Assembly: GCA_000165345.1 (NCBI GenBank)
Contig: CM000435.1
Coordinates: 1,184,001-1,248,000, forward strand
Direction of reading: 5' to 3'
Length of the DNA: 64,000 bases
Of this stretch, positions 8,342-55,520 are shown one piece after another; positions within the stretch are counted from its first letter, which is position 1, and each line of letters starts with the position of its first letter. The notes beneath the pieces were generated by a model, which was given only the letters and a program-made list of their open reading frames with translations, had not been told where the DNA came from and ran no database searches. Both the position numbers and the translations under genes were made by a program.

Positions 8342-8380
8342 TGCATGCATGCAATTCACATTTACTTTCTATATACCGGT
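8342..8380. promoter_or_regulatory. TGCATGCATGCA cluster plus an ATATACCGGT element
   Basis: 5' spacer of the large KE-repeat gene. TGCATGCA is the type of site bound by ApiAP2 factors in apicomplexans. Confidence 0.4.
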
Positions 8381-8635
8381 GTCCACATGCAAATATTTTA
8401 AAAAAATAATTAAACAAATTTCTTGATAAAAAAGTAGTTAATTAATTTTTTAAAAATTTATATAATAGCTAGTTATGTTTGGTAACTACCATTTAATAAT
8501 TTAGTTTTAAATATAAAATAGTAAAAGCAGATCAGAAAATCAATTATAATATATTTTACTAGGCAAAAGTACTATTTATTAATTATAATAAATGCCATAT
8601 TTATATTTATTTTTCATTTTGAGAAAATGATTTTT

Positions 8636-9696
8636 TTATTGAGACTTTTTTCCTCCACCCATATGGACAGATGCATAACCAGTTGGTGGTGCATCATCAA
8701 TAGAGACCATTAAGTGCTCAGCATCCGACTCTACGGTTATGAAGTATTAATGAGTCATTTGTAGAAAATTAGATGATTCTGATATATTTAATAACTTACC
8801 TAGAATTGCAAGCTTTTCGGAATCGGTCAAAATGGAGTTACCTGCCATATCTTGACTTGCAGAGCCTAAAGATTTAAGAATAAATTATTTCATTTTAATT
8901 AGTTCATTAATTGATAAAAAAACTTACCGTCAATTTCTGCAGGAATTTCAACACTATCTTCTTCGCTCTCCTCACCCTTTGGTGTAGTCAAAGCATTTTG
9001 TGCAGCCATTGTTTGCTTTTGAATAATCTGAGAAATTGGCTTTCCATTAATAGTGAGGAATGGCTTGCCTTGGCTACTGTCCTTGATAATAATATCAATT
9101 CCAGAAGGTTTCAGCTCACCAACATTACTTCCAGCGAGTACATTTTGTTTTTTTGATATTGCTGGTAATTTACCACTTCTAACTCCAGTTTTTTCACATA
9201 AAACCATTTCTGTAATGGCATTCATCCAAATATTTCTCATATTTCTGTTTTTTGTGCATACATTATAGCCTATTCCTTTATCGCTTCTGATTCCAAAACA
9301 TATATCGGAAATACTATCTATTGGTAATAAAATAGATGTTGATGATAAAGTTACAATTGGTAATTTTCCACGGAATAATTGGAAATTTCCTTGGTGAATG
9401 ATACCTGAAACTCTTTCCAAAGCATCTGGATCTCCTGGAATTAATTGTCTATCTAATAATCCTTTTAATCCCTCTCCGCATTGACCAATTTGTTCGTCAT
9501 CTACAGTCAAAAGTGAGCTTCTAATTGTTCCCACTAATGACTCTATATCACTTTTTGTGTATCCTTTATTCACCAACTGATTAAATACTGACTCTGACAA
9601 TCCTAGATGAGTCTTTGCTCCTTTAACTAGTGCAATAGATGCAAGGAATAGTGTTGCTATTGAAATTCTTGCCATATTCCCAATTTTTTCAATCAA
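8636..9696 (-). CDS. Secreted hypothetical protein, three exons: complement join(8636..8730, 8791..8865, 8928..9675)
   Basis: First ATG at 9675 gives MARISIATLFLASIALVKG (signal-peptide-like). At 8927 the reading frame meets GTAAGT (plus-strand acttac 8922-8927). A 62-nt AT-rich intron ends in TAG. A 75-nt exon follows (…GSASQDMAGNSILTDSEKLAIL). A second GTAAGT (plus acttac 8785-8790) opens a 60-nt intron ending CCGTAG. A final exon runs to TAA at 8636 (ESDAEHLMVSIDDAPPTGYASVHMGGGKKSQ). The track ORF end 8899 (…GKFFYQLMN*) is intron read-through. Confidence 0.5.
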
Positions 9697-9857
9697 TAAT
9701 TAATTAAAAAAATTACTTGTAATTAAATACAATACTTAAATTCCTATTTCACTGCTATATTATCCTCATAATCTATCTAAATTCAAGTAAACACAAAATG
9801 CAATTACTATATACCGGTATTCATGCAAATCATTTTTTCAATTACGTATTCAATTTT

Positions 9858-9884
9858 CATGCATACATGCATACATGCATTGCA
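9858..9884. promoter_or_regulatory. CATGCATACATGCATACATGCATTGCA cluster in a divergent spacer with no E2F box
   Basis: Between the secreted spliced gene (start 9675, -) and the COWP-like gene (10214, +). Shares the 17-mer ATACATGCATACATGCA with 16710-16726. ATATACCGGT at 9809-9818. Confidence 0.4.
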
Positions 9885-10213
9885 AAATAAATTTGTCCAC
9901 ATAAAAATAAAATAAAAAATAAAATAAAAAAAATACTCGGAATAGAGTAAAATGAGTGAATTAAATAAGCTAAAGATTATTTATGGCAATATGAATTTGG
10001 TATTGAAAGGGGAGATCGAATATATTAAGGCCAGTGATTTAAGGTAAAAATAAAAAAAGGAAATATTGCTTCAGTACTCTAAGACAATTTTAATAAAAAA
10101 AATTAATAACAAATAAGCAAAATTCATTTGATTATTATTAATATTCTTAATATTATTTGATAAGTATGAAAATACTGTCAGCGAAATAAAAGCTGGGAAT
10201 CAAATAAGTAAAG

Positions 10214-12103
10214 ATGTCGACAAGAATTCAAATTTTCCTGTTAACTGTGCTTTTTATTGGATTATTTAACGATTCAGTGTCACAATTTACACAAAACTTG
10301 AAAATAATTGAATCAAAGTCTGTATGTGTAGATTCAGATATTTATGATTCAGAAACAGATATGTGCCTGGCGAAAGTTAATGCAATAAGTAAAAGTTGTC
10401 CTAAAAATTGTCAAAAGTTTGGTCATCTCTGCAAATGCATTGATGAAATTCCAATTCAGTCAATTTGCCCAAGCGAATATGTTCTTTCTCCAAATATGAA
10501 AAAATGTATCAAAGTGGAAAAGCTTGCACCTTCAATAGAATGTGGGAGAGGATTAAAGTGGTCAGAAAGTAAAAATATATGCGTTGGAGTAAAGTTATCA
10601 GCTCCAGAGCTGACATGTAGTAAAGAGAATTCCATGTTAATTAATGGAGTTTGTTTGACGTATAGTAAAAAGAGTATTCAAAATGTTTGTGAAGATGGGT
10701 TTATTATTAGGGAAAAAAATATATCAGAAAAGTCACAAACTGTCAAGTTAAATACAAGAGGAATTAAGACTGGACATCAGAATAATAATGATGAATCGAG
10801 AATTAGTACAAGTTATTGTGTAAAAGAACTTAGCTCACCTTATAATTTAGAATGCCCCAATGGTTTTATTCTAGACAGAGAAAGATCTTCATGTATTTCT
10901 CAGGTTTTCAGTGATCCAGAACCTAAATGCTTACCTGGCTTTGAGTTTGATAATAAATCTGAAACTTGCGTAAATAGGTCATTAGAAGAGTCTTCCAGCA
11001 GAGTATGTCCAAAAGATTATGTGCTTGAAGGTTTTCAGTGCGTCCAATCATCTTTTGTCAGTCCTGAGCCACGATGTAGAGAGGGATTCGTTTTTAGTGT
11101 TGAAGATGCTGCATGCATTAAAGTATTACGAGAGCCTCCATCATATAGATGCCCTTCTGATTTATATATTTTTGATGGAAAACAATGCGAACTAAGAAAA
11201 ACAGAGAAACCAACAATAATGTGTGGAAATGGGACCATTTTAGACGAAAAGATACAAAAGTGTGTTAAAATCAATGTAATGCCAGCAACAATGGTTTGTT
11301 CAGGAGGAAGACAGTATGACGAAGATAAAAGAAAATGTTATGTAATTCAAGTTCAAGAATCTAACAAAACTTGCTCAAGTGAAGAAAAATATGATCCAAA
11401 AAGGGATATGTGTATTAAATTTGAAGAAAAGAAACCCGTCAAAGGTTGCCCTTATGGTTTTAATCTTAATGAATTAGAACAAATTTGTGTTCAAGAAAAC
11501 TTCGAAGAACCCAAGCTCTCTTGTAAGGCTCCTTTCTCCTTAGTTGGAGGGGACTGCCTTTATAATGCTGAAGTTCAACCCGAATATGTTTGCCCTGAGA
11601 ATTTTGAGTATAATGCACAAAATTCGCAATGTTTAATGCAAAGTACTATACAGCCTGAAAATGGGTGCCCCGAAGATTATAATGAGTACATTGATAAATG
11701 TATTAAACAAATAGAAAAGAATCCAGTAAGTGTATGCCCTACGAATTCAAAGTTAAACACAATCACAAATGAATGCTTTATTCCTAAAAAACCATTGAAG
11801 GAGTGCCCTACAGGGTTTAAACCAACTAATGATTCTGCCACTCAATGCATTCAAATATTAAATCAAAATAGACCTCAAGCTATCCAAACTACCCACAGCA
11901 ATAATAACAGACATCACAACGGTCATCATCAAGCTTTCATTGGAGATTACTACAATAATCATCCCAATATAAGAAATTTCGGAGATGTAAGTAATACCCA
12001 GGTGCAAACAGTTCAACTATCAAATCCTAATAGAAGAATAGGAGATCCCAGCTTAAATGTATATCCTCAAAACATTAAAACCGCACCTAGACCAAGAAGG
12101 TGA
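10214..12103 (+). CDS. Secreted cysteine-rich protein with oocyst-wall-protein (COWP)-like repeats and a His-rich C-terminal tail
   Basis: Signal peptide MSTRIQIFLLTVLFIGLF. At least 11 reiterations of C-x(n)-C-P-x-(G/D)-(F/Y)-x(4-8)-C modules (ECPNGFILDRERSSC, VCPKDYVLEGFQC, GCPYGFNLNELEQIC, ECPTGFKPTNDSATQC…). Tail NNRHHNGHHQ. Confidence 0.6.
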   Translation: MSTRIQIFLLTVLFIGLFNDSVSQFTQNLKIIESKSVCVDSDIYDSETDMCLAKVNAISKSCPKNCQKFGHLCKCIDEIPIQSICPSEYVLSPNMKKCIKVEKLAPSIECGRGLKWSESKNICVGVKLSAPELTCSKENSMLINGVCLTYSKKSIQNVCEDGFIIREKNISEKSQTVKLNTRGIKTGHQNNNDESRISTSYCVKELSSPYNLECPNGFILDRERSSCISQVFSDPEPKCLPGFEFDNKSETCVNRSLEESSSRVCPKDYVLEGFQCVQSSFVSPEPRCREGFVFSVEDAACIKVLREPPSYRCPSDLYIFDGKQCELRKTEKPTIMCGNGTILDEKIQKCVKINVMPATMVCSGGRQYDEDKRKCYVIQVQESNKTCSSEEKYDPKRDMCIKFEEKKPVKGCPYGFNLNELEQICVQENFEEPKLSCKAPFSLVGGDCLYNAEVQPEYVCPENFEYNAQNSQCLMQSTIQPENGCPEDYNEYIDKCIKQIEKNPVSVCPTNSKLNTITNECFIPKKPLKECPTGFKPTNDSATQCIQILNQNRPQAIQTTHSNNNRHHNGHHQAFIGDYYNNHPNIRNFGDVSNTQVQTVQLSNPNRRIGDPSLNVYPQNIKTAPRPRR

Positions 12104-12271
12104 TAATTAATATATAAAAGTTAAATTGGCGCCAACAATTCATACACGTTAATTTCAATAATTATAATATTTAAGTCGAATTAACAATAAGGCCCATTAG
12201 TTTTGCTCAGAGATTAAAGAATATACCAGGATCTAAAGATTTTATTAATATAATTCTATGAGAGGTGAATA

Positions 12272-12637
12272 ATGCTTAAAAAGTTAGTATCTGGAAGTGA
12301 AGAACAGCCTGCAAATAAGACTCTATATTGCAAGAACTTGAACGATAAAATCAACAAAAAAGATTTAAAGATTCTATTATTTGAACTCTTTATTCAATTT
12401 GGTTTGATTGATAAGATTACAATAAGGGGAGGAAGCCCATATAGAGGCCAAGCATTCATTTTGTTTCAAGATTTAAATTGTGCAATCAATGCAAAAAATA
12501 GCATTAATGGCATGAATGTATTAGGTAAACCTATACATATAGAATATGCAAAAGAAAACTCAATTTTGAATCCTGGACTAGCGGAGAAAAAGAGCTCGGG
12601 ATACATATTGGGACCAAAAATGCCGGACAATAAATAA
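12272..12637 (+). CDS. U1A/U2B''-type snRNP protein (single N-terminal RRM)
   Basis: TLYCKNLNDKINKKDLKILLFELFIQFG…RGQAFILFQD…PIHIEYAKENS aligns with U1A [28 protein letters not shown]…RGQAFVIFKE…MRIQYAKTDS. Confidence 0.7.
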   Translation: MLKKLVSGSEEQPANKTLYCKNLNDKINKKDLKILLFELFIQFGLIDKITIRGGSPYRGQAFILFQDLNCAINAKNSINGMNVLGKPIHIEYAKENSILNPGLAEKKSSGYILGPKMPDNK

Positions 12638-12732
12638 AACAGAATTAAGAATTAGAAATATTACGATAGAAGTACATAAAAACAAATAATTCTATTAAAA
12701 CGTAACTCTTCTCACACAGAATATTTTGGTAC

Positions 12733-13263
12733 TTATTGAACATTCTCTATCAAGTTCTCAGCGTTTTCTGTATCAATCTTTGCAATCTTTTGAGGTAATC
12801 CTTTTACTGAATCCAATTTGTCAGTAGAGCCAAAACCTCCCTCACCTCTAGTAGTTTTGTCCAATTCATCGACAATACTGAAGGTAATTTTTTCTCCATT
12901 AAAAGAAACGAGTTGGAAATATCTCTCGCCCTTTTTGACTTGGAAGTCAAAATCTTTAATATTATCAACTGGTGCCAAAAGTTCGCCTCTATACCCAGCA
13001 TCAATCAATCCAACAGAGTTGCATAGTCTAATTGGCGACTTTGAAATTGATGACCTTGCAAATAAAAGGTAACTAACTGGCTTGCCATCATCACTGTGAG
13101 CTGCAGCTTTAAATCCAAGCTTGATGTATGCAGTTTCTCCTGCTTTAATCACTTGGTCTTCAATTATGAAAAGGTCAAGTCCTGAATCACCATCGTGAAA
13201 AGTTTTATGGTTTTTGTAGAGCTCTTCAGCTATGGGGCATAAAGGTAACAAAGATAGATGCAT
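12733..13263 (-). CDS. DUT: dUTP pyrophosphatase (trimeric dUTPase)
   Basis: Canonical dUTPase motifs: DSGLDL, GLIDAGYRGE, and C-terminal RGEGGFGSTD. Confidence 0.85.
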   Translation of the reverse strand: MHLSLLPLCPIAEELYKNHKTFHDGDSGLDLFIIEDQVIKAGETAYIKLGFKAAAHSDDGKPVSYLLFARSSISKSPIRLCNSVGLIDAGYRGELLAPVDNIKDFDFQVKKGERYFQLVSFNGEKITFSIVDELDKTTRGEGGFGSTDKLDSVKGLPQKIAKIDTENAENLIENVQ

Positions 13264-13652
13264 AGTTAAATAAAATACAAAATAATGTTCTCTCCTTTAA
13301 CCAGTAATTACTTAAAATAGTAAATCTTTAAATTTAATTAGTATTCTATAATTTTTTTTTCCTAACGGAAGATACCTACCTTATTTATTTGTATTATTGT
13401 ACTTTACCACTATTTAATCAGTTAGAAAAAATGACGTTTAGGCGGGAAATATGTGGGATGTATACCGGCATAGAAAAAATATGAAGGTGAGGAGAAAAGT
13501 AGAAATATAAATCGTTAAGATTCAAAACAAGATCCTATAGTATGAAAACAAAAGCATAGCTCCTGTATTTGTGAGTATTGGTCAAGTTAGATTTTAAGAC
13601 CAATGATAATAGTGTTATTAGCTAAATCATCCCAACGGTTATAAGCGGAGCA

Positions 13653-15005: not shown

Positions 15006-15161
15006 CTTGGCAAATTCTTGCTTCTGGAGCCGTAGTTCTAATTATTTATATCCTTTATTTTATACAAATATCAAGGTTTTAAAAGTTAAAACCTTTTTGT
15101 CAATTTAATATTTCTTTCCACTTTTTTCAGTCATATAGTCAATTAAAGCAATATTAGCCTT

Positions 15162-15179
15162 TTGGCGCCATGGCGCCAC
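15162..15179. promoter_or_regulatory. Paired E2F-type box, perfect 14-bp palindrome GGCGCCATGGCGCC, upstream of the MPN/eIF3-like gene
   Basis: TTGGCGCCATGGCGCCAC lies 160 bp upstream of the ATG at 15005. A TATACCGGC element follows at 15201-15209. Confidence 0.6.
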
Positions 15180-15337
15180 ATTTCGAGACGAGTATTTTTA
15201 TATACCGGCTAATTTACATGATCATTTGGAATTAGGGGGAAATGGCGAGTAAAGAAAATTGTAAAAAAAGCTATAATTAAGTAAAACTAAATAGAAAGCT
15301 TGAAACTGTCATATTAATGACTTAAAGGTATATAAGA

Positions 15338-18027: not shown

Positions 18028-18060
18028 TATACCGGTACCGCTTCAGTCGATTTTGGCGCC
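18028..18060. promoter_or_regulatory. TATACCGGTACCG element plus a GGCGCC box in a divergent promoter
   Basis: TATACCGGTACCGCTTCAGTCGATTTTGGCGCC lies between the 17609 (-) and 18176 (+, bromodomain) starts. Confidence 0.5.
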
Positions 18061-26579: not shown

Positions 26580-28247
26580 TCATAACACATTAAGAGGGTC
26601 TTCATCATCTTCGCTTTCATATATTTGTTGTTTCTGTTTAATATAATTTGGAGCGTTCATATTGGAGCTAGACTTAATCAACTTAGTGTCTATTGGATCA
26701 TTTCTGGGATTCTGATTAGAGTTTGCACCGTGAATACTAAAAATATGCGCAAATTGAGACCAGGATGGCCTTCTAGAAACGGAATTTGACTCAAATTGAA
26801 TATTTTTCAGTGACTCAATTTTCTCATTTAGGCATTCTTTTGATGATAAATCCTTATTTTTTTTGTTTTCAGTTGTCCCCATTCCTTTTGAATTACTTTT
26901 ATATAGAGAACTCTGTGCCTTATTAAGATATTTCTTTGTTAATAAATTCAGGTTAAAAATACGACCAGAAGTGGATACTGACATTCCTTTAAGTTTTGAT
27001 GAAATTGCATCCAGAGCTTTGTTTGTATTTGCATCTAAATTATACAATTTTTCACTAAATTCTTGATCAAACTCATTATCTATTTCTTCACTATCATATT
27101 CATCTGATTCTTGAAATTCTGATAATGAAAATGTATCCTCTTTCTGATAGCTGCTCAAATTATTTGAGATATCTATAAAACCCATAGAATATTCTTCAAT
27201 AGGTAAATCCCTTTTCAGAATTTTATTATCTGTTAATATCAAAGTATTTTGCACTATATTATGTGAATTTTCATAGTATTGATTCGTATCAATATTGCTT
27301 GAAATTAAAGAATCTTTTTTAGATTCATTAAATTGATATAAGGAATAAACTGATCTTACAAATTCATTCATTGTTGTTTCCTGAAAAAACCCACCGTTTG
27401 AATTTGAGCTTTTAAACAGGCTTGACAATGAAGAATCCTTCAAATTTTGTACATATTTATTTACTTCATTCCAAGTAATACAATTTGGTCTATATCCAAA
27501 ATTACAAATTAGTTTAATAGAAAAGTCATCAAAAATTCCTATCAGACTTTTTACTGTATGTTCTTGAATCAATTCTTTGCTTCTTTTTCTTGTAAATGAA
27601 CTCTTCTTTCTTGAAGAAAAAGTTCCTTCTAATTTATTTGGAATATATTGCCCTTGAGATCCATGAATCCACTCATGGGCTCCTGTTATTAGTGCTTTAA
27701 TAAACCTATTTGTTGAAAATGGATGGTCCATAATTTGGCATAATGAAAAATAAAAAGATATTCCAAGTCTTAATAGCACCAACTCAACTCCTTGCATTAC
27801 TGCTGGTCTCTTTTTTAAAGATGATCCAAAACAGGCTAATGCATTTAAAAGATTGAATAGTGCTTCGTTCTTACATCCAAATGGAGTTAATAAAGGGAAT
27901 TTCCTACTTTTGAGAAATTCCTCGAACCACTCCTCTTCAAAATCTTTTAATTTATGCACGTGGCAAATTGTTAATAGTAAGACTGAATATAATGTTGGAA
28001 TGCATAATCCATATTTTGCATCTTCTACCATATTATCAGGCTTTACTGAAAATTCATTAAATAACTCAGTTACAACTAATTCTATTAAACCCCTTTTATT
28101 TGCAGGAAATGCAGAACTTATTGAATGCAATACTGAAGGCCTTACTGAAAAATAATTACTTTCTCCCACTCTTTCCGAACTCAGATCTATGTTTGGAAAT
28201 TTATGACCCAGTTCACCAAATTCATTGCTTCCTTTTGAGTTATACAT
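26580..28247 (-). CDS. Hypothetical protein
   Basis: 555-codon ORF with an ATG start. No recognisable domain. Confidence 0.5.
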   Translation of the reverse strand: MYNSKGSNEFGELGHKFPNIDLSSERVGESNYFSVRPSVLHSISSAFPANKRGLIELVVTELFNEFSVKPDNMVEDAKYGLCIPTLYSVLLLTICHVHKLKDFEEEWFEEFLKSRKFPLLTPFGCKNEALFNLLNALACFGSSLKKRPAVMQGVELVLLRLGISFYFSLCQIMDHPFSTNRFIKALITGAHEWIHGSQGQYIPNKLEGTFSSRKKSSFTRKRSKELIQEHTVKSLIGIFDDFSIKLICNFGYRPNCITWNEVNKYVQNLKDSSLSSLFKSSNSNGGFFQETTMNEFVRSVYSLYQFNESKKDSLISSNIDTNQYYENSHNIVQNTLILTDNKILKRDLPIEEYSMGFIDISNNLSSYQKEDTFSLSEFQESDEYDSEEIDNEFDQEFSEKLYNLDANTNKALDAISSKLKGMSVSTSGRIFNLNLLTKKYLNKAQSSLYKSNSKGMGTTENKKNKDLSSKECLNEKIESLKNIQFESNSVSRRPSWSQFAHIFSIHGANSNQNPRNDPIDTKLIKSSSNMNAPNYIKQKQQIYESEDDEDPLNVL

Positions 28248-29199
28248 TATTTAAAAACTTTTTTTTTCAAAGATTGCTTCTATTATTAACAGTGACTGTT
28301 GTGAATATATAGATTTAACTTAATAGGTTGAAGCTTATTATTTACCTTTCCTATTCAAAAATTACGTTAAAATTCTTAAGCAATAATCCTTAGTAGTTTC
28401 AGACTCCTCTTTTCCCATTTCTAAACACAAGCTTTTGGGATTTCATTCACAAGGAATAATGGATTTCTAGTTATTCTTAAAGCTAAAACCAGGCTCTATT
28501 TTATCTGATAAATAATAAATACATTACAAAATAAAACAAAGTAATTCAGGTATAAAAGGTTGACTAGGTTAAAATTTTTTTTTCCTGTGACTTCACAAGT
28601 CTGACAGTTTCTTTAGACTTCTTTTTATTTGTGCTTGGTTTAATTAAAATGCATTATATGAAAATCAAGAAATTCTAATCCGCACCCTTAATTTGGCTTC
28701 TTAATAAATTCTTTCACATACTCATTATTCAAAATTTTAAAAGTTACATATAAGTTTTTCCTGTTCTTCCTTGAGTAATAGCAGTATTTTTATATTTGTT
28801 TTTTCCCACTATTTAATGCTTTTACATGCTCGTATTTTAATAAACTTTAAAAAAATTTTATCGTGGAAAAAAAAAATACTTTGCTTTTATATCCCGGGTA
28901 TATTTTTGTGTATTTTCTTTGTGAATATTTTGCCGGAATATTATTTATGTTTTTAGTACCGGCATTTTCATAATTGCATGCAAACAATTCCCAAAAAGTA
29001 ACAAATTTTTGATGATATTATTTGGCGGGGGGCTTAGCAAATTAATGTGGGAATTAAAGCTAAAAAAAAAAAAATAAAAATAATAGAAATAAAGAATTGG
29101 AATTTAAAGTGAAAGAAATTATAAGGAAACTTATTATATCATGTATTTCTATAATGTGTACTAAGCAAAGTTGACAAATTCTTGTATTTTCTCCCTTTT

Positions 29200-30330: not shown

Positions 30331-30356
30331 GGCGCCAAATTAGCTTTAATACCGGT
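30331..30356. promoter_or_regulatory. GGCGCC box plus ATACCGGT element upstream of eIF2-alpha
   Basis: TTTGGCGCCAAATTAGCTTTAATACCGGT, 125-150 bp upstream of the eIF2-alpha ATG (30207). Confidence 0.5.
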
Positions 30357-32455: not shown

Positions 32456-32852
32456 CTTATAGAGGATTACAATAGGCTCTCCAGTTAATCAAAACAATCG
32501 TCTATGTGTGTTAATATTTACTAAAAGTCTCAAAACTATCCTTTGATCAACTTACAATTATTATTTTATTATTTTATTTTCCTATTATTATTTACTCCAT
32601 AGTGGGGCAAAGGCGGTACCTTTCCTAAATATTACATAAAAACATTTAAAAAAATTGAATATTGTTTTAGATCAAATAATTAAAAGAAAATCTCAAACTA
32701 AAACTTCATAAATTGAAATAAACAAGTTCTATAAAATTGTTAAATCTTCAAAACATATTCCCTTCCCTTTGTCACATTAATCTAAAATATTCATTACTTT
32801 TCATTTGACTATAATTAAAATACTATTAGGCGGGAACATCCCAAATTCTGAA

Positions 32853-34230: not shown

Positions 34231-34249
34231 GGCGCCACAATGCGGCGCC
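34231..34249. promoter_or_regulatory. Paired E2F-type boxes (TTTGGCGCCACAATGCGGCGCCAAA) in a divergent promoter
   Basis: Between the Hint-protein start (33983, -) and the RabGGT-alpha start (34367, +). Followed by TTGCCGGTAC at 34251-34260. Confidence 0.6.
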
Positions 34250-34366
34250 AAATTGCCGGTACTTGAAAAGATCAAAAAGAATTTTTGAAAAGAAGTCAAG
34301 TGGAAAAAAATTACAAATAAATAAATAACTAGAATTGTAAGCAAAATTTATACAAACCTAGATTAA

Positions 34367-43147: not shown

Positions 43148-43444
43148 TTAAGAATCTGAAATCTTTTGCCTCTTATATACTTGTTGGTCTTTCTCAAAGT
43201 TTTGAGTCAAATCTTCATATCCCTCTCCTACCATTCCAATACAATCGCCACGTAAAACAAGAGACTCCATACTTACAGTTTCTACTTTGTTCAGATCTTT
43301 ATTATATATCTTTTCAAAGCAATTTTGTAATACTATATTTGTTAGCTGATCGAACCCTACCAAATTCCCAACATATACTTTGTTATCAACTGTCAATACG
43401 CTCACAGTCTTGTTGATAAACTGTTCTAATGTAGAACTATTCAT
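43148..43444 (-). CDS. LSM8: Sm-like protein LSm8
   Basis: LEQFINKTVSVLTVDNKVYVGNLVGFDQLTNIVLQNCFEKIY…LVLRGDCIGMVGE aligns with human LSm8 LENYINRTVAVITSDGRMIVGTLKGFDQTINLILDESHERVF…IVRGDNVAVIGE. Confidence 0.8.
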   Translation of the reverse strand: MNSSTLEQFINKTVSVLTVDNKVYVGNLVGFDQLTNIVLQNCFEKIYNKDLNKVETVSMESLVLRGDCIGMVGEGYEDLTQNFEKDQQVYKRQKISDS

Positions 43445-44070
43445 CTGCTAATTCTAAAAGTTGGTAAAAAGTATGCAAATAATTAATAAGGACCAATATA
43501 AATATATATATTTATATAGATCAGTTTGCCAATGTATTTTGGAATCCTAATTTTTTTTAAACCTTGAAAGTAACTGGAATAATTGAAACAGTCAGTTCAA
43601 AAATAGAAAATCCTAAGGCATTGTCTAGCCACGTATTTAAGATGAATTCTTATTTAATATATTGTTAACAAATAAATTTCCTTGAAAAATAATTTTAAAA
43701 TAATTTTTCTGGTCTCATTCTACCGACATCAATGGACCCTCATCTTGATACCGGTTTTTGACTATGAGTGCATTTTGGCGGGCTTCGGGAATAATTTATT
43801 TATTAAGCTGATGAAAAAATTAGTATACAAATAATTTAGATTACTGTGAGTTTGAAAGAAAATTTTCGGTATTATTTGTTCTCACTGGAAAGAAGATACA
43901 ATCTCTTGAAGGTATAAAGTAAAAGTCCCTTATATTCGTATTAATAATAAGTGGCTCATAAAGCCATTAATAATAAATTTAAAAATACGAAATTTATGTG
44001 AGAATATAAGTAATAAACCTTTAAAGTGAGGGAGAAAGAGGTAGGAGTTTATCATATTGAGTACAAAACC

Positions 44071-46091: not shown

Positions 46092-47267
46092 CTATTCATT
46101 TCTGTTAATTTTAATAGAGGAAATAGTTTTATATACCTGTTCTTCATTACTTATGACTCCTATTTCTTGAATTCCAGATAATTCATTAAGCTGAATTTCA
46201 GAGATATATCCAGGACCAAAGCTTTTTTTTGAGTATGCTTTCACAAGACTACTAGAATTAAATGTTAATTTCTGTTTTTCACTTTTATTTCCGTATTTTG
46301 TATTGATAAAGGTTACATGTGGGTTATAATCCTGTACTATAGAATCTTTTAGATTTTGTGATTTGTTACTAATCTCTGAATTAGAATCAGATATTGTTAA
46401 ATTAACCCCATATTTTATCAGTATCTCACAAAGTTTAATCCAAAGTCGTTTAATCATTGCAATTTTATGATTTTCAGATATTTTTGCATATACAACTCTA
46501 GAATTATAAGGAGATCCAAAGTACCCTAATCCATGTAACTCCACAGGAAATCCCTTTTCAGAAGATGATTCTTCCAAAATGTCTCGAAACTCTTGAGTTT
46601 CTTTTAATTCGAATAATGCATTCTCACACTGTAAAAGTTCTTGAGGTGTTTCTGCTCGAACTAACCCCAAAGTTATGTGCAATTTCTTCTCACCAATAAA
46701 AAATGTCGGTTTAATTTCTCCGTACTCTGCAGATTCATTCACCACTTTTTTTAAAGCTTTGAATTCCTTGAATAGATTCAAAGAGTGCTGATTAAATGAT
46801 AAACTGAAAAAGTGTGTTGGAGTTTGATTTACTTTGATATTTTGATCTTTTTCCTCCAAATAATCCACAAATTCCAAATGATCAAAATTTGAGCCAAGCT
46901 TAGTAGCTTCTTCAGATTCTTCGCTTTCAGAATTTGAGAAATTACTATCTTCCTTAATAACTTGCACTTCGCTTGTAGGCTTAAATGAAAGTCTTTTCAA
47001 CAAACTTGCTGGAATCTGACTCAAGTCCACATACTCACTCACCATCCTCCCCCTTTCTTTATCCCCTGACCTCTGAAAGATGTTGTCTCGTATTTCAACA
47101 GCTTTTACTGGCGGGAATAAAATCATCTCATCTAACTTTTCGATTTCATTTGAATGAAAATGACTACCCTGGGGGGAATTATGATCATTATAAGATCCCT
47201 CTGCTCCCGTAACTCCGCTTTCTTCGTTCAGTTGTTTTTTAGATTCCTTAATTTTTTTTGAAGCCAT
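46092..47267 (-). CDS. 2H-phosphoesterase-fold protein (ASCC1/AKAP7/LigT-like)
   Basis: Two H-x-T/S-x motifs at the right spacing: KKLHITLGLV and NPHVTFINTKYG. Confidence 0.45.
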   Translation of the reverse strand: MASKKIKESKKQLNEESGVTGAEGSYNDHNSPQGSHFHSNEIEKLDEMILFPPVKAVEIRDNIFQRSGDKERGRMVSEYVDLSQIPASLLKRLSFKPTSEVQVIKEDSNFSNSESEESEEATKLGSNFDHLEFVDYLEEKDQNIKVNQTPTHFFSLSFNQHSLNLFKEFKALKKVVNESAEYGEIKPTFFIGEKKLHITLGLVRAETPQELLQCENALFELKETQEFRDILEESSSEKGFPVELHGLGYFGSPYNSRVVYAKISENHKIAMIKRLWIKLCEILIKYGVNLTISDSNSEISNKSQNLKDSIVQDYNPHVTFINTKYGNKSEKQKLTFNSSSLVKAYSKKSFGPGYISEIQLNELSGIQEIGVISNEEQVYKTISSIKINRNE

Positions 47268-47340
47268 AAATCATTCTAATCGGTACCGTTAATTTCCTCA
47301 ATTTACTTTTACTACTTTAAGCACTGCAAGCAAACAGAGA

Positions 47341-47622: not shown

Positions 47623-48423
47623 ATGGATCAAATCATTGACGATGATGAGTACAATTCAATTTTCCCACTTGAGAAAATTGCTTCTCATTTGAATATTTCC
47701 TTAAAATTCCTAGAAAATGCTCAAATTCAGTGGATGAATGAAAAAGAATCACTCCTTCGTGAAATTGAGAGACTAAGAATGGAAAATAGAACTCTAAGAA
47801 TGGAAGTTAGAAGTAGTGAAAATATTGAAAGGAATTCTGTCTCAAATACTCCAAATAACAACAGAATTAAAAGTTATTATTTAATAAACAATGACTCTGG
47901 TCAGATTATTCCTATCCCTCCAAATCCAGTAAATCAAGTAGTTGGAAGAAGCTGCAGTAGTTCAAACAATATTAAAAGAGTAAACGATGTTCTTGAGATT
48001 CAAAATATTACCGAAAGAAATTCGAATGCTATTCCAAATAGAAATTCGATTTCTGCATCGAGAAGCATCCAAAATGATCAGATTTCTCCAGCTACAAGTT
48101 CACAAAACTGTCGAGTGAGACATATACAACTTGAAGACGAAAATAGCGACCATGAACCATTAGAGGAAAAGAAAAAAGCTATTAAGTATAGAGAAGTTGG
48201 AAAAAGTATTGGCAAAAAAGAACAAAGAAAGAATCTTGAAGCATTCGAGTGTACCGAGTGTTCTAAGTTTTACAAAGCTATTAATAATAATAGAACATCA
48301 AATAGCCAATCAATGTGTAAGCATCTAAAGCAAAGCCTTCTTCTTCAGAATTCAGGAAGGCATAGGTTCAAACATCCTCCAACTAAATCTCCCCCAGGGT
48401 ATTGGGATTTGGATGAAATTTGA
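47623..48423 (+). CDS. CtIP/Sae2/Ctp1-like DNA end-resection factor (short form)
   Basis: N-terminal coiled coil (LLREIERLRMENRTLRMEV). C-terminal Sae2/CtIP signature FECTECSKFY…GRHRFKHPPTKSPPGYWDLDEI, matching the CtIP C-terminus C.ECSKFY…GRHRY.PP.TPE.FW…F. Confidence 0.55.
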   Translation: MDQIIDDDEYNSIFPLEKIASHLNISLKFLENAQIQWMNEKESLLREIERLRMENRTLRMEVRSSENIERNSVSNTPNNNRIKSYYLINNDSGQIIPIPPNPVNQVVGRSCSSSNNIKRVNDVLEIQNITERNSNAIPNRNSISASRSIQNDQISPATSSQNCRVRHIQLEDENSDHEPLEEKKKAIKYREVGKSIGKKEQRKNLEAFECTECSKFYKAINNNRTSNSQSMCKHLKQSLLLQNSGRHRFKHPPTKSPPGYWDLDEI

Positions 48424-48514
48424 TATTAAGAAAGTATAATAAAATTTTGTTAACTTATTATTTCTATTATCTTTTTTTTTTACTTATATTTCATTTTAAA
48501 TTATCAATATGTAA

Positions 48515-50411: not shown

Positions 50412-50760
50412 TTTATAACTAGAAAATGAGTATCATCTGCTCAGTTCAATTCATATTTCTTGAACTTTCATTAAAAAGAAAAACCTTATTGCATGCTTTT
50501 TTATAATATTACCAAATTACCCGCCAAAGCGATTTTTTGATGATACCCCAAAAAGATCGATAAAGAAAAAAAAATAGGACAAATTATTACGTGAAAAGTG
50601 GGAAAAACTTTGATACACATATTTTTGTGTATGAGCCCTAATAGTGAATCAGATATTAGGTAGCAGAGAGAGAGAGAGAGAAGCAAAATATCTTGGAGTT
50701 GGAACAATGTTTTGAAGTTAATGGGATCAGAAAGAAGAACAAAGGTATTTCCGGTTAAAT

Positions 50761-53433
50761 ATGAATAACGAGATTGAAGTATCCGGAATTTATTCATTAC
50801 CTGAGATAGATAAGTTAATAGGAGAAAAGGTATTTTTTTCATCGGCTCTACAAAATAGCCTTTCAAGCAAAAATGAACAAGAATTAAAAATATATAGTTA
50901 TCTAAATCAAGATTTAAGCGGATCTATCTTAGAGACTGAATCAATTTTAAATAAAGTATTTAACACTGATAACTTTTCTATGACGGATTCGTCTATTTTG
51001 GAGAAAAATGAAGACAATATAGTCGATGGAATTCATCAAAAAGAAGAGTTAAATAGTCATTACGTCTCAGTAGAAAACACTCTGAAAGAGAATCAAAGCA
51101 TTGAAAACTCTTTGAGTGAATTTCCAGATGAAAAAGGAGTAGCAGCTCAAGATGATTTAAACGAGAGTTCTGAAGGGAAAAGTAAAATTAATATCAACGA
51201 AATGGAGCATTTTATGGATGCTGATGCAAACTCTGTTGGGTCTGAGATGGATTCTCTGGATGGATATACAACATTTGACTATGGATTTGATGGGAGTGGG
51301 ATTATTTCTTCTGTGGAAGACTGGGAAAGTGACGATAACTCGGTAGTTTTTAGATATAATGAAATGGCCTGGCCAGAAGAAGCCATATTAGAAGGAACAG
51401 AAACGGATGCAAATGAGGTTATAGAAAATATATGTGAAGAGGATGACCCAGATAAAGATTTAGGCGAAGCTAAATCTGAAGAAGAAATTGTACCTAAAGA
51501 AAATACTCCTGAATGCAAGGATTATAATCAAATTTCAGTTAATGAAGAGAATTTTATTAAAGAATCCGAATTTGTTAGCAGTGAAATCAAAATTGGTGAT
51601 GTTGAATCTATTGGCAGAAGCGATCAAATAGATAGTGATGAAAGAGATGTTATTTATATAAAAAGAAGACCAGGTTCTGAAAGCAGCTTTCATGTTGAAG
51701 GAGGGATGATGCACGTACCTTCAGTTGAACAAGAGGTAGTACTGGAAAAAGTTGCGGGAGAGAGTGCTGAGGCTTCTCCGTCGTCGACAAAATTCAGGAA
51801 ATGGCTTTCAAGTAACTCAGGAACCTCTAAGATCCATTCATATTTAGGAAATTTTAGAGGAGAAAATTTCAAGGATGGCTCCGGGATATCTGGTTCAAGT
51901 ACTTTGAAGAGTTTATTTAAAGTTGGAGGAGTTTTTAGAAGATATGGGTACCTTTCAAACTCTTCTTTTAACTCAAATCTTGTTACAAGTTTGGGAAGTA
52001 TTATTAATCAAGCAGAAAAGAGCAATAGTAGGACATTCAAAGGTGATGATTCTGGCCTATCTCATGTAGAAGTCTTAAACGGAGCTCACGAAGCCAGAAG
52101 AAACTTGAGACAGCGTACCCTTCCGATGAAGATTTCTACAAAATTTCAAATCAGCAATAAGACAAGGAAGGCAAGGGAAAATGATATTGGATCAATTTGG
52201 CTGATAAGAGAAATATATTTATCTTTAACACCTCAAATTCTAAAGCTATCAATGAGTATTGATGGAGAGTGGTTGATTTTAGGAAGTCAAGATGGTAGTA
52301 TACGACAATGGAAGTTTAAAGGAGATGAATTTGGAGATTCTGGAATGATTTCGTCATCAGGCCATCAAATAGAGCCATTCTTTAATGAAAAGGAGGACTT
52401 TAATATTCAAGCTCATTCAAATGCAATCATATCTTTGCACTGGGAGAATGATGAAGGAAGCCATAGGTTTCTCTCAAGCAGTATGGACAGAACTGTGAAG
52501 CTTTGGGAGGCAGGCTCTACAGAACCAAATGCTGTAATTAACTGCTCAGATTGGCCGACATCTGTTTCTTTCCATCCAATACAAAAAAATATTATTTTTA
52601 TTGGCTCATTAGATGCATCTGTACAGATTTTGAGACTAATTCCTAACGAAGGTTCCCCAAATAAATTCCTAACCAAAGTAGTTGAAACGATTAGAGTACA
52701 GGATTTATTGACTTCTTTATCTATTTCACCTAATGGTAAATATCTTGCTTGTGGATTTAAGGATGGGGGAGTTGCATTTTACGATGCTAGAACTTTAAAG
52801 TATAGATGTGATGTGGATTGTAGAAATAGAAGAGGAAAATCCTCAAAAGGCAGAAAAGTTAGTGGTATTTCTTGGAAAAGAGACAATAAAAGTGTTTTAG
52901 TAACTACTAATGATAGCAGAGTGAGATTATTTAATTTGAGTGATTTGTCAACATTTGTTAAATTTAAAGGCCATATAAATGAGGAAACTCTTCTTTCTGC
53001 TCAAATTTCTAATGATGAAAAATTCATAGTCTCTGGTTCGGAAAATGGGTACATTTGTTTGTGGGATCTTCAACCAGATTTTGGAAGATCCATTTTTGGA
53101 ATCCAATACAATAAAAATAACCTAAATGGCTCGAACTTCCACCCAAATGTTACCAGCAACCAAATTTCTTTAAGATATGATAGGATTAACATTAGAAGAG
53201 GTCCCACGCAACATTGTGTTGACTCATTCAAGGCATTTGATTCGTCTCTAACCTCGACTATACTTGCTCCTCCTGCTTTTTCCAAAAAGATTATTAAATT
53301 CTTCAAAATGAACCAAAGAAATTCATTGAATTATCCTTCATTTGGAACCTACATTAATGAAAAAAATGCTCAAATATTTATCGCTGTAAACAGAAATGGA
53401 CAAATCAGAATTTTTATGAACATTCCTAATTAA
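50761..53433 (+). CDS. WD40-repeat protein (C-terminal beta-propeller, long low-complexity N-terminus)
   Basis: WD signatures LGSQDGSIRQWKF, SSSMDRTVKLWEA, GSLDASVQILRL, CGFKDGGVAFYDA, SGSENGYICLWDL in the last ~400 aa. Confidence 0.7.
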   Translation: MNNEIEVSGIYSLPEIDKLIGEKVFFSSALQNSLSSKNEQELKIYSYLNQDLSGSILETESILNKVFNTDNFSMTDSSILEKNEDNIVDGIHQKEELNSHYVSVENTLKENQSIENSLSEFPDEKGVAAQDDLNESSEGKSKININEMEHFMDADANSVGSEMDSLDGYTTFDYGFDGSGIISSVEDWESDDNSVVFRYNEMAWPEEAILEGTETDANEVIENICEEDDPDKDLGEAKSEEEIVPKENTPECKDYNQISVNEENFIKESEFVSSEIKIGDVESIGRSDQIDSDERDVIYIKRRPGSESSFHVEGGMMHVPSVEQEVVLEKVAGESAEASPSSTKFRKWLSSNSGTSKIHSYLGNFRGENFKDGSGISGSSTLKSLFKVGGVFRRYGYLSNSSFNSNLVTSLGSIINQAEKSNSRTFKGDDSGLSHVEVLNGAHEARRNLRQRTLPMKISTKFQISNKTRKARENDIGSIWLIREIYLSLTPQILKLSMSIDGEWLILGSQDGSIRQWKFKGDEFGDSGMISSSGHQIEPFFNEKEDFNIQAHSNAIISLHWENDEGSHRFLSSSMDRTVKLWEAGSTEPNAVINCSDWPTSVSFHPIQKNIIFIGSLDASVQILRLIPNEGSPNKFLTKVVETIRVQDLLTSLSISPNGKYLACGFKDGGVAFYDARTLKYRCDVDCRNRRGKSSKGRKVSGISWKRDNKSVLVTTNDSRVRLFNLSDLSTFVKFKGHINEETLLSAQISNDEKFIVSGSENGYICLWDLQPDFGRSIFGIQYNKNNLNGSNFHPNVTSNQISLRYDRINIRRGPTQHCVDSFKAFDSSLTSTILAPPAFSKKIIKFFKMNQRNSLNYPSFGTYINEKNAQIFIAVNRNGQIRIFMNIPN

Positions 53434-53744
53434 AAACAATCTCTTATATTAGGTTATTCTTCATTTGCACTCTGATAAAAAAAAATTAATATCTTTCAAT
53501 CTATTCCTAAGATAATAACTCTATCTTTTCATTCAAATACACAATATATTCTCGTCACGAAGATACGTATTTCTTTGTTTTTTCTTTATCTAAATAGCAT
53601 TAAACTTATATGAAGGATAACATAATTCTGTGTTATTCAATAGTAATAAATCAAAGCCTGAAAGTAATTACATCAATAAAACTCGGGTATTAAATTTAAG
53701 ACCCTTTCCCGATCAAGGATGAAATATCTAGTATTTACTTTCTT

Positions 53745-55316
53745 TCAAGTAGGAACAAATCCAACTAAGTTTACTATTTTTAATTTATTACTTGAATCAA
53801 ATGATGCATTTAGGCAAATATTTCCCTGAATAAAACGAACATATAATAATAAATTATCGATAGTGAAATTAGGGTTAGAACATTCAGAAGATCCTTCATT
53901 GTTTTCAATAGACAGTATTCTCTCAGCTACTTGCCTGGTTAAACATACATCCTCCAATAGTAATTCATCCCACGGCTTTGGTAAAGGTATTGGATAATGA
54001 ATACCTAGTTCAAGGAGCATTTCATCACTATTTACACTCCTTCTAGAGTTAATTACAACAGCTTCAACCCAAATGACTAATTCATCTTCATTTTGTGGGT
54101 GATCAATTTCATTTAAACTTTCAGAATTAGTTTGTAATACTGATGGAGCTTCCGATAAATTAAATTCATGATTATTATTTATATCAGGATAATAGCTATT
54201 TAAACCCTCGAAATTTTCATCTTGATATTCTAAATCCTCTCTAATTTCAATATCAGCATAATTTTCAAAGTCAAAATAACCTTGTAAATCGTCTACAATA
54301 CCGACATCCAATATTTCATTTTCCTTTTCTTCAATGGACTTAGGAAAAATCTCAATAACTGAATTAGAATCAGAATTAGAGTTATCTGGTTCTATAAAGC
54401 ATTCATCTTTGATTTCTAATTTCTCTAATAATAACTCGTCTTCAATCAAAGAGTTGCTTAAAAAAGAATCTGAATTAACTTGATTCAGTGCTTTTTGGTT
54501 TGAAATAACTTTATAGTTCTCTTCAAATATCTGATTATCTTTTTTTTCCTTTAAGCCTGAATTTGTAATCACAAAGTTTGAGTATGACCTGATATCTAAG
54601 ATCCCCTCTGGGGTTTTAATTGGTTTCTTAACTAAGTTTTCTGACAAAATAGAGGAGCTGGAATTGCTTGTAGACTTTTCTCCTATGTTTTCATTGAGCT
54701 TTTTAACTCGATCATGAACACTTTGTTCAGCATCTTTATGCATGATAAAAGTAAGCATTCCAGGTAATAAAAGCATGACTCCTCTTTTGATTTCAGGCTC
54801 ACCTGACAAAAGAACCAATATATGGGCGTTGTTATCTCGCTGATTTGAATCTCCATTCTTTTCAATATGTTCTGTATATTTGCACCAAAAGCTTATGAAT
54901 TCATCTAATTCAGGCATGTACCTATATTCCATTGCAGAGCATACATTTGTGCCATCTGTTAAAATGAGTTTCATCATCCTATTCTTAGAAGGAGTAGTTA
55001 TTGATACTTGCTCCATCTTAGATAAATCTGAGTTAAAATAGAATCGATTTCTAGACTTAGCCTTGGAAACATCCTCAGCCTCTATTAATTGCAATAAATG
55101 AACTCCTTTTAAGTTAATTTTATGCAAAGAATGAATATCCAAAGGTAGACTTCCTTTCTTAATAATTTTTGATAGGTCCACTGAAAGCAAAAGTTTTAAA
55201 AGTTTGTCAGAATAATCATCATAATCCTCTTTAAATGGTTCTAATAGCTTTTCAACCTCCTCACAAACTTGAATTTGCAAATCCTTCAAAATGTGTTCAA
55301 TCAAATTTTCACTCAT
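53745..55316 (-). CDS. RMI1/TDRD3-like DUF1767 + OB-fold protein
   Basis: NRMMKLILTDGTNVCSAMEYRYMPELDEF…KRGVMLLLPG aligns with human RMI1 [31 protein letters not shown]…LGVLLLKP. The track start 55328 is TTG; the first ATG is at 55316 (MSENLIEHIL). Confidence 0.45.
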   Translation of the reverse strand: MSENLIEHILKDLQIQVCEEVEKLLEPFKEDYDDYSDKLLKLLLSVDLSKIIKKGSLPLDIHSLHKINLKGVHLLQLIEAEDVSKAKSRNRFYFNSDLSKMEQVSITTPSKNRMMKLILTDGTNVCSAMEYRYMPELDEFISFWCKYTEHIEKNGDSNQRDNNAHILVLLSGEPEIKRGVMLLLPGMLTFIMHKDAEQSVHDRVKKLNENIGEKSTSNSSSSILSENLVKKPIKTPEGILDIRSYSNFVITNSGLKEKKDNQIFEENYKVISNQKALNQVNSDSFLSNSLIEDELLLEKLEIKDECFIEPDNSNSDSNSVIEIFPKSIEEKENEILDVGIVDDLQGYFDFENYADIEIREDLEYQDENFEGLNSYYPDINNNHEFNLSEAPSVLQTNSESLNEIDHPQNEDELVIWVEAVVINSRRSVNSDEMLLELGIHYPIPLPKPWDELLLEDVCLTRQVAERILSIENNEGSSECSNPNFTIDNLLLYVRFIQGNICLNASFDSSNKLKIVNLVGFVPT

Positions 55317-55520
55317 CAATCTATTCAATGTTCAAATCTCATTTAACAGGAAGAAAATGTATTTTGCACATTATAAGTTCATTTGAGCTACTCACTATTA
55401 TTTCAAACTAATTATTTTTTTCTTTTACATTTGGATCAAATATTGTTTGGTACCGTACATAATTTGGCGGGAATTGCAATTCCAAAATAATCAACAAAAA
55501 AATAAAAGAAAGTTAAGATC

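Follow-up and report, generated by a model that had tools for sequence, protein, structure and literature searches.

The window analysed here, a stretch of 64,000 nucleotides (nt; GenBank assembly GCA_000165345.1, contig CM000435.1, positions 1,184,001 to 1,248,000), carries in the spacers before its genes a recurrent CCGG-containing word that often stands near an E2F box. The question raised by this locus is whether the word is the site of a transcription factor, a part of the core promoter, one half of a composite E2F element or a by-product of base composition. The results point to CCGGTA(Y), with the full form (A)TACCGGTA(T) and the register variant CGGTACC(G), as a conserved promoter-proximal cis-regulatory element of the genus Cryptosporidium, which, as judged from the sequences compared, is probably the site of a putative sequence-specific DNA-binding protein.

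Six of the open reading frame (ORF) products of the window are identical to C. parvum Iowa II / ATCC proteins (COWP5, eIF3 subunit H, a bromodomain protein, Rab GGTase alpha, Cgd7_5250 and a CtIP-type protein), and the window was therefore assigned to chromosome 7 of Cryptosporidium parvum, roughly cgd7_51xx to cgd7_53xx. The GC content is 27–36%, and the genes are densely packed and almost intron-less. The gene models were ORFs of at least 90 amino acids (aa) counted from the first ATG, which gave 33 spacers (13.3 kb) and 50.7 kb of coding sequence (CDS), and the model of gene M (8636–9675, − strand), which has an intron, was taken from the C. parvum annotation. The syntenic loci of seven other species, C. 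meleagridis, C. ubiquitum, C. canis, C. felis, C. bovis, C. ryanae and C. andersoni, were included in the comparison, where eIF3H and Rab GGTase alpha served as the anchors. The GC content of the C. canis locus (L001) is 51.5% and that of the C. felis locus (L012) is 44.7%, and it is 25–32% in the other six species.

All the 12 strings that the first-pass annotation had listed are present in the window, seven of them exactly where it placed them (8371, 9809, 13461, 15201, 18028, 43747 and 47281) and the other five (GTACCGGC, ATACCGGT, GCGGTACC, TTGCCGGTAC and GGTACCGTA) displaced by 1–11 nt to the positions given in Table 1. Its expectation that such a word should be rare by chance was borne out, as TATACCGG occurs five times where 0.26 occurrences are expected and none of 100 shuffles reaches five. 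On both strands together, CCGGTA occurs 14 times against 3.05 expected, and TACCGGTA with at most one mismatch occurs 14 times against 4.96 expected; in neither case was the count reached in any of 100 shuffles. The proposed preference for 5′ spacers over coding sequence holds in the window, where CCGGTA/TACCGG is found 11 times in the 13.3 kb of spacers and three times in the 50.7 kb of ORFs, a 12-fold difference (Fisher p = 6e-6). When the CCGGTA and CGGTAC matches are merged, 16 clusters are obtained, of which four are coding and 12 lie in spacers, the latter being exactly the 12 sites listed before. The control CCGG hexamers CCGGAT, CCGGAA and TCCGGA show no enrichment in the spacers, which indicates that the excess of CCGGTA is not an effect of CpG or GC content.

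All 6-, 7- and 8-mers in the spacers were also scanned against a second-order Markov model. In the resulting ranking of words, CCGGTA, CGGTAC(C), ACCGGTA(T) and CCGGTATA come third, after the families of E2F (GGCGCC, GGCGGG) and GCATGC. The word ACCGGTAT is found six times in the spacers and not once in the CDS, and the abundance of the element in the window is about equal to that of TGCATGCA. In all eight species CCGGTA/TACCGG is denser in the spacers than in the CDS, by a factor of 3.5 to 57, and pooling the species other than C. parvum gives 50 matches per 51.9 kb of spacers against 18 per 159 kb of CDS (p = 3e-17).

Read towards the nearest gene, the sites give the consensus R-C-CGGTA-Y, in which CGGTA is invariant and is preceded by C in 9 of the 12 sites, with A or G upstream of it and T or C after it. 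The consensus written earlier, TATACCGG(T/C), was replaced by the conserved core CCGGTA(Y)/TACCGGTA, with the fuller form ATACCGGTAT; the "TATA" part of the former is not kept in the orthologues. TATACCGG is the reverse complement of CCGGTATA, that is, the strand opposite to the direction of the gene had been written. The copies of TATACCGG are all on the + strand because four of the five lie upstream of − strand genes and read CCGGTATA genewards; the fifth, at 18028, is in a divergent spacer, and the bromodomain gene to which it was assigned (18176) is on the + strand. The window has two perfect palindromes, ATACCGGTAT in the 9809 site (with the inner TACCGGTA at 9812) and TACCGGTA in the 18028 site. 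Seven copies of TACCGGTA with one mismatch are found in the spacers, and three copies read TACCGGCA. The second register, CGGTACC(G), is found at 18033, 32613, 47281 and 55449, and the two registers overlap at 18028 (TATACCGGTACCG). The simplest description that these sequences suggest is a 5-bp unit, CGGTA, which stands alone or forms either kind of inverted pair.

The sites are located in about half of the promoter spacers of the window, mostly about 110–210 nt 5′ of the start codon, and every site is in a spacer that has the 5′ end of a gene on one or both sides. Over the loci of all species, 23 matches are in divergent spacers, 37 in tandem spacers and one in a convergent spacer. Most tandem-spacer matches stand 145–212 nt from the ATG of the following gene; in the tandem spacers of C. 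parvum this distance is 145–202 nt (once 712 nt), against 135–534 nt to the upstream stop codon. The orientation in the tandem spacers of all species is sense in 22 cases, antisense in five and palindromic in five, and all five cases of C. parvum alone are sense; these counts take in orthologues and are non-independent.

The element is kept at the same place in the orthologous promoters of the seven other species, within spacers that are otherwise unalignable. Global MAFFT alignments of whole spacers that included the distant species were unreliable, the C. andersoni motif being misaligned, and conservation in the distant species was scored using an alignment-free test of shared k-mers together with alignments of hand-chosen sub-regions; the orthologue tables cover nine spacers, those of sites 47281 and 55449 being left out. 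In the alignment-free test, where the 6- and 7-mers shared by a C. parvum spacer and its orthologue in C. bovis, C. ryanae or C. andersoni were counted, CGGTAC, CCGGTA and ATACCGG rank directly after the E2F words, a result reached in 0 of 200 shuffles. In the aligned eIF3H promoter (alignment A1), CCGGTA is invariant in six of six species and forms the most upstream conserved block, beyond which the sequence cannot be aligned, and the spacing between the element and the E2F box is held at 31–36 nt in the orthologues. For sites 18028, 28956, 30349, 32613, 34253 and 43747, conservation covers at least the intestinal clade, and it extends to C. bovis for 32613 and to C. andersoni for 34253. Perfect TACCGGTA copies occur in orthologous promoters of C. 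bovis, C. ryanae, C. andersoni and C. canis. In the GC-rich loci of C. canis and C. felis, the orthologous positions still have their E2F boxes, and CCGGTA persists at most of these positions in C. canis and at some in C. felis.

A further 8,425 nt of C. parvum sequence adjoining the window, which took no part in defining the motif, was used as a hold-out. The element is found in three of its four wholly new spacers, each time 15–50 nt from GGCGCC, and there is no CCGGTA in its CDS. One of the spacers has ATACCGGTAT (L015, about position 1630) and another has CGGTACC, each 15 nt from GGCGCC, and the spacer 5′ of a SET-domain gene has both CGGTACC and TACCGGTA, 27 and 50 nt from GGCGCC. Two perfect TACCGGTA copies are thus added.

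Table 1. Sites of the CCGGTA element in the spacers of the window (positions within the 64,000 nt; distances to start codons are approximate).
Position	Strand	Sequence	Sequence on the − strand	Setting
8371–8380	−	ATATACCGGT	ACCGGTATAT	~180 nt 5′ of the ATG (8196) of the 1624-aa gene 3322–8196(−)
9809–9820		ATATACCGGTAT, holding the perfect 10-bp palindrome ATACCGGTAT (9811–9820)		Divergent spacer between gene M and COWP5
13461–13470	−	TATACCGGCA	TGCCGGTATA	~202 nt 5′ of the dUTPase ATG (13263)
15201–15210	−	TATACCGGCT	AGCCGGTATATAAAAA	~200 nt 5′ of the eIF3H ATG (15005)
18028–18040		TATACCGGTACCG, i.e. overlapping TACCGGTA (18030–18037) and CGGTACCG (18033–18040)		Divergent spacer; ~143 nt 5′ of the bromodomain-gene ATG (18176, +)
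28956–28963	−	GTACCGGC	GCCGGTAC	In a cluster ~650–780 nt 5′ of the ATG of gene 26580–28247(−)
30349–30356	−	ATACCGGT	AACCGGTATTAAAG	~145 nt 5′ of the eIF2-alpha ATG (30207)
32613–32620		GCGGTACC, GGTACC register variant, within the block GGCAAAGGCGGTACC		~160 nt 5′ of the SSRP1/POB3 ATG (32455, −)
34253–34262	+	TTGCCGGTAC		~110 nt 5′ of the Rab GGTase alpha ATG (34367, +)
43747–43756		GATACCGGTT		Divergent spacer between the LSM gene (43148–43444, −) and gene 44071(+); ~305–322 nt from either ATG
47281–47288		CGGTACCG palindrome, register variant		14 nt from the first ATG of 46092–47267(−), ~340 nt from the CtIP-like gene (47623, +); weak member
55449–55457		GGTACCGTA, register variant	TACGGTACC	204-nt divergent spacer 55317–55520; E2F-like GGCGGG 16 nt away (55466); weak member

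The two sites listed first in Table 1 are the best matches, and both lie in spacers that have no E2F-like box in any species examined. Site 8371 is flanked by CATGTGGA and TGCATGCATGCA, and the module CATGTGGA..CCGGTAT..TGCATGCATGCA 5′ of gene 3322–8196 is common to C. parvum, C. ubiquitum, C. bovis and C. ryanae, while CCGGTAT with TGCATGCA is also found in C. andersoni. In C. meleagridis one G>A substitution has turned the site into CCAGTAT (L006:16580–16600) in an otherwise near-identical promoter; this loss constitutes a natural mutant. Site 9809 is about 140 nt from the ATG of gene M and about 400 nt from that of COWP5 (10214, +), with GCATG repeats upstream, and in the spacer between these genes six species align over TTTGCA..TACCGGTAT, which C. 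andersoni also has, outside the alignment. The pairing of the element with TGCATGCA-type motifs in these two spacers is conserved as far as C. andersoni. Both E2F-free promoters (8197–8500 and 9676–9900) have arrays of GCATG/TGCATGCA together with CATGTGGA, which are conserved across the genus. The targets of AP2-F, the female factor, that a 2025 review lists (PMC12246861) include cgd7_5140, whose gene number falls near these two promoters.

In the spacers with an E2F-like box, the element and the box are frequently conserved together. At site 13461, the E2F-like GGCGGG (13441–13446) is 22 nt nearer to dUTPase; the site is kept in C. meleagridis, C. canis has TACCGG equally far from the gene, and the copy of C. 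ryanae is shifted. From site 15201 towards eIF3H, the conserved block ACTCGTCTCG (15184–15193) comes next and the double E2F box (15164–15177) follows. This CGTCTC block (ACTCGTCTCG on the − strand), which lies between CCGGTAT and the double E2F box, is invariant in six of six aligned species and resembles the FIRE motifs VYGTCBC and RMGACG of "Unknown set 1" (Oberstaller 2013). AGTCGA and GATCGA are also over-represented in the spacers of the window. At site 18028, the E2F box (18055–18060) is 23 nt nearer to the bromodomain gene; CGGTACCGGTAT is kept in C. meleagridis and C. ubiquitum, C. canis has the variant CGGTACCGGAAT (GTA to GAA), and the E2F spacing is the same in all three species. 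At site 30349, the E2F box (30331–30336) is 19 nt nearer to eIF2-alpha, with the same order and spacing in C. ubiquitum. Site 34253 stands immediately 3′ of a double E2F box (34231–34249), which is the reverse of the usual order; CCGGTACT is kept in C. ubiquitum, and CGGTACT/CGGTACC is found in C. felis and C. andersoni.

Site 28956 belongs to a cluster of three CCGG words (28894, 28933 and 28959) with TTGCATGCAA and an E2F-like CCCGCC (29024), and at its place three TACCGG words are found in C. ubiquitum and one in C. felis. The cluster (28890–29035) is promoter-like and is conserved in C. ubiquitum and C. felis. The surrounding 952-nt spacer (28248–29199) was checked for a missed gene and no convincing ORF was found; the cluster points to a gene with a long 5′ leader or an unannotated first exon, or else to a non-coding transcript. 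The block GGCAAAGGCGGTACC (32605–32620) around site 32613 is conserved in C. ubiquitum, C. felis (CGGTATT) and C. bovis, and within it the GGTACC variant may be joined to a separate element, GGCAAAGGCGG, that does not resemble E2F. Site 43747, with an E2F-like GGCGGG at 43777, is conserved in C. ubiquitum only. Site 47281 has E2F boxes 60–70 nt away; ORF 46092–47267 may truly start at an ATG further into the frame, or the copy may be that of the divergent CtIP-like gene. The same ORF (− strand) has an AKAP7/2′-5′ RNA-ligase-like domain. The scans for tRNA genes and Rfam families, which would have revealed a hidden RNA gene or Pol III element, gave no hits and hence none overlapping any of the sites, and the Pfam annotation of the unnamed flanking genes was mostly empty and was no help for an association with gene classes.

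The element is distinct from the E2F box, as had been supposed: CCGGTA has no GCGC, it forms a separate block 12–35 nt away, and it is separately conserved in alignment A1. The first-pass annotation had further placed it 10–55 bp from E2F boxes in at least eight promoters, which suggested a composite element to it. When the spacing to an E2F-like box (GGCGCC or GGCGGG) is measured centre to centre, the element is indeed often a few helical turns away, but the count is 7 of 12, at 12–31 nt. This count is above expectation, with 2.0 cases expected for random placement within the spacer and 3.1–3.9 for placement 100–260 nt 5′ of the ATG (p = 0.0006–0.013). Two more sites are 68 and 71 nt from an E2F-like box, and three have none nearby (8371 and 9809, with none in the spacer, and 32613, at 215 nt). 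It might be supposed that the element is an obligate half of a composite E2F element, the site of a cofactor that works only with GGCGCC, like the tandem of the cell-cycle-dependent element and the cell-cycle genes homology region (CDE/CHR) in animals. The excess of adjacent pairs, the GGCGCC beside all three hold-out sites, and the order of element, E2F box and ATG in the eIF3H, dUTPase, bromodomain and eIF2-alpha promoters, which is kept with its spacing in the orthologues, would fit this idea. However, the spacing ranges from 12 to 71 nt, the order is reversed in the Rab GGTase alpha and 26580–28247 promoters, many E2F promoters of the window have no CCGGTA (e.g. 12128, 24332, 25925, 37070 and 42579), and the two best copies pair with TGCATGCA-type motifs instead. 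The element accompanies whichever major site a promoter uses and is therefore not an obligate half of an E2F composite; adjacency stands as a frequent arrangement, and the obligate pairing is quite improbable. It is still less probable, to the point of being very hard to sustain, that the element has no function as a promoter site, being a compositional or mutational by-product, a 3′-end signal (polyadenylation or termination) of the upstream gene, or the donor (CCG|GTAT) at the 5′ splice site of leader introns missing from the annotation. The site lost in C. meleagridis has no obvious replacement, seven of the 12 sites are in tandem spacers, which also hold the 3′ end of the neighbour, and GTAT or GTAC after CCG could in principle be a donor. 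Against these points, the positions are conserved between clades whose spacers are unalignable. A compositional artefact was rejected on the basis of the unenriched control hexamers, and a 3′-end signal was rejected because over all species divergent spacers, which have no 3′ end, hold 23 matches and convergent spacers one, and because in the C. parvum tandem spacers the distance to the ATG is tighter than that to the stop codon. A splice donor does not fit the palindromic forms and the occurrence on both strands; in addition, the species closest to C. parvum encode eIF3H, of 450 aa, in a single exon, which places the site 200 nt upstream outside any intron of this gene.

The main rival is a core-promoter role, which is nevertheless unlikely. 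Here, CCGGTATA(T/A)A would be a TATA-like box with a GC-rich flank resembling the TFIIB recognition element (BRE), or an initiator, which positions RNA polymerase II so that transcription starts at a constant distance downstream, near the E2F boxes. The sense bias in tandem spacers (22 against 5 over all species) and the narrow distance to the ATG agree with this role, five C. parvum copies have the form CCGGTATA, CCGGTATATAAAAA is seen at eIF3H, and in four promoters the E2F box is 19–31 nt downstream, where the start is expected after a TATA box. However, the TATA part varies while CCGGTA is fixed, the orthologues reading TACCGGTAAATGG, CCGGTACT, CCGGTATG and CCGGTATTGG; the bases that follow CCGGTA in orthologues are TAAATGG, CTATAT, TGACAT or TTGGAT, and a conserved TATAWAWR is not found. 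The distant species carry the symmetric TACCGGTA, TATA is missing altogether from the GGTACC variants, the E2F box can stand on the other side as described above, and about half of the promoter spacers lack the element. The zone free of upstream ATGs, taken as a proxy of the start site, shows no depletion (median 68 nt against one ATG per 78 nt), a search of short eIF3H contigs for RNA-derived 5′ ends gave genomic contigs only, and a cited long-read study describes its own annotation as lacking explicit transcription start sites. A factor site is favoured over an initiator or core-promoter signal because of the palindromy, the variable spacing and the presence in only about half of the promoter spacers.

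Several points weigh against a factor site and set the confidence with which it can be held. Its function is read from enrichment and conservation, and the sense bias and the fixed distance to the ATG fit a core-promoter role equally well. Individual sites turn over, one strong site having been lost in C. meleagridis by a single substitution, and sites 30349 and 43747 show no conservation beyond the intestinal clade. The gene models of the window are our own ORF calls, the C. parvum sequence covered is about 72 kb of a genome of roughly 9.1 Mb, so that the region could be unusually rich in the element, and the orthologous loci are non-independent samples. The motifs of AP2 domains that are named in the text of the protein-binding microarray (PBM) paper (TGCAT, CACACA, the G-box and GGTGCACC), are unlike the element, and six domains gave no motif. 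Three published genome-wide motif searches in Cryptosporidium contain no report of the word, a silence that needs explaining if it stands in about half of the promoters; a cluster-contrast design, which misses general motifs, is a possible explanation.

With these points considered, a site of a sequence-specific protein is still the explanation that we prefer. Such a protein would bind the element probably as a dimer or as two adjacent monomers, as suggested by the palindromic and overlapping arrangements of the 5-bp unit CGGTA. It would act at the upstream edge of the promoter, with the element 12–35 nt from the major site, which is usually an E2F/DP box and otherwise TGCATGCA-type ApiAP2 motifs, and would cooperate with E2F/DP or ApiAP2 factors in establishing or activating the promoter. 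We infer that the element behaves more like the site of a general promoter factor than like a stage-specific switch because it stands in about half of the promoter spacers and its genes are mixed, including eIF3H, eIF2-alpha, dUTPase, chromatin proteins and a spacer of an oocyst-wall gene.

The first over-represented-octamer study, by Bankier et al. in 2003, reportedly states in its abstract that there are just two abundant motifs. The catalogued Cryptosporidium motifs are E2F (TGGCGCCA / TTTGGCGGGAA), AP2_1 (TGCATGCA), AP2_2 (GCACAC), the G-box, GAGA, the CAAT-box and the "unknown" FIRE sets (Oberstaller 2013; 2025 review PMC12246861, Table 3). None of the 25 consensus patterns or 11 families of Oberstaller 2013 (PMC3734150) matches the element, and Table 1 of that paper has no CCGG-containing pattern. 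The strings ACCGG, CCGGT, CGGTA and TACCG are absent from the text and available supplements of PMC3734150 and from the texts of the AP2 PBM paper (PMC4117751) and of the motif papers of 2007 (PMC1779779) and 2010 (PMC2832001), and CCGG is absent from the text and the motif Table 3 of the 2025 review PMC12246861. No mention of the word was found in the promoter studies of Cryptosporidium, Theileria and Babesia that were searched, and a 2025 preprint on chromatin accessibility by transposase sequencing (ATAC-seq) found only E2F-type and poly-T motifs. Like the catalogued motifs, the element is a short word over-represented in the 5′ spacers of C. parvum; unlike them, it has no GCGC or GCATGC core, and it lacks the TTTSSCGC / GGCGCC core of E2F/DP sites. 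Unlike AP2_1 and the G-box, it is not reported to be bound by any AP2 domain in the accessible portions of these sources. The statement that the motif had not been described therefore stands for the Cryptosporidium catalogues examined and fails outside them, where the same palindrome is an orphan promoter motif of oomycetes.

The element is thus very likely a real site, a conserved cis-regulatory motif that is absent from the Cryptosporidium catalogues examined and, at the level of sequence, has an identical counterpart in oomycetes. The cis-motifs recognised in Cryptosporidium number only six or so (E2F, AP2_1, AP2_2, G-box, GAGA and CAAT), and most putative DNA-binding proteins other than AP2, including 16 Myb-domain proteins, are without a known target; a conserved palindromic word can serve as bait for a new factor. 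The element also offers a concrete mutation for the existing Cryptosporidium transfection systems. It may be a general component of promoters, because it stands beside E2F boxes in housekeeping promoters and beside TGCATGCA in the promoters of the COWP5 region; if so, and if it is not a stage switch, this would matter when minimal promoters are designed for transgenes.

The closest known counterpart is found in oomycetes. The motif M94 of Phytophthora infestans, TACCGGTA, is a "high-confidence" promoter motif (Roy et al. 2013, PMC3597505), motif-9, GTACCGGTA, precedes 1,284 Phytophthora genes (Seidl et al. 2012, PMC3520976), and streme-5 of Plasmopara halstedii is ATACCGGTAT (PMC10031896). The sequence is identical to that of the element, up to the 10-bp ATACCGGTAT at 9811–9820 of the window, and the oomycete motif is likewise abundant, located a few hundred nt 5′ of start codons, and an orphan. 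The element shares the palindromic core TACCGGTA and the over-representation within about 500 nt 5′ of start codons, where it is 8- to 12-fold denser in spacers than in the CDS. However, oomycetes are stramenopiles and Cryptosporidium belongs to the alveolates, the oomycete motif was associated with the expression of infection-stage, RXLR-effector and hyphal genes, to which nothing corresponds here, and no link of it to E2F boxes is reported. The resemblance may be convergent. The identity nevertheless raises the testable question of whether a regulator is common to both groups. It is conceivable, though doubtful, that TACCGGTA and its binding protein are an ancient alveolate-stramenopile pair of motif and factor, which in Cryptosporidium would be a general promoter organiser like yeast Reb1/Abf1 or Drosophila DREF, mark about half of all promoters and stand upstream of the E2F/DP and ApiAP2 programmes alike; if true, a transcription system believed to be based on E2F and AP2 factors would gain a third pillar, hitherto unseen.

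Other known systems provide functional analogies. The Drosophila DNA replication-related element (DRE) TATCGATA, which is bound by DREF and cooperates with E2F at growth-gene promoters, is an 8-bp TA..TA palindrome; it has the same shape as the element, but the central bases differ, and the analogy is functional only. The animal Grainyhead sites AACCGGTT share the ACCGGT core, and the copies at 30349 and 43747 read AACCGGT, which is again a functional analogy only. To our knowledge, neither BED-finger DREF proteins nor CP2/Grainyhead proteins are known in Apicomplexa, although no search for them was made.

The comparison with Myb-like proteins points weakly to this class as the leading candidate for the factor. 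The classical Myb site is YAACNG (reverse complement CNGTTR), and CCGGTA is one base from CCGTTA. TACCGG is likewise one base from TTACCCGG of the Myb-like yeast general regulatory factor Reb1 (TTACCCG), and Reb1 and TTACCCG are mentioned together in nucleosome papers. The PBM lists of 8-mers for P. infestans contain no CCGGTA; the nearest are the 8-mers NACCGGTC of the Myb protein PITG_08960, which share the ACCGGT core with the element but prefer C, not A, after it. In C. parvum, 16 Myb-domain proteins are annotated (PMC12246861). The resemblance to Myb sites is taken as an analogy and a lead, and not as membership, and a parallel in behaviour would be that of the Reb1-type factors, which mark a large share of promoters upstream of the start site, as is proposed here for the element.

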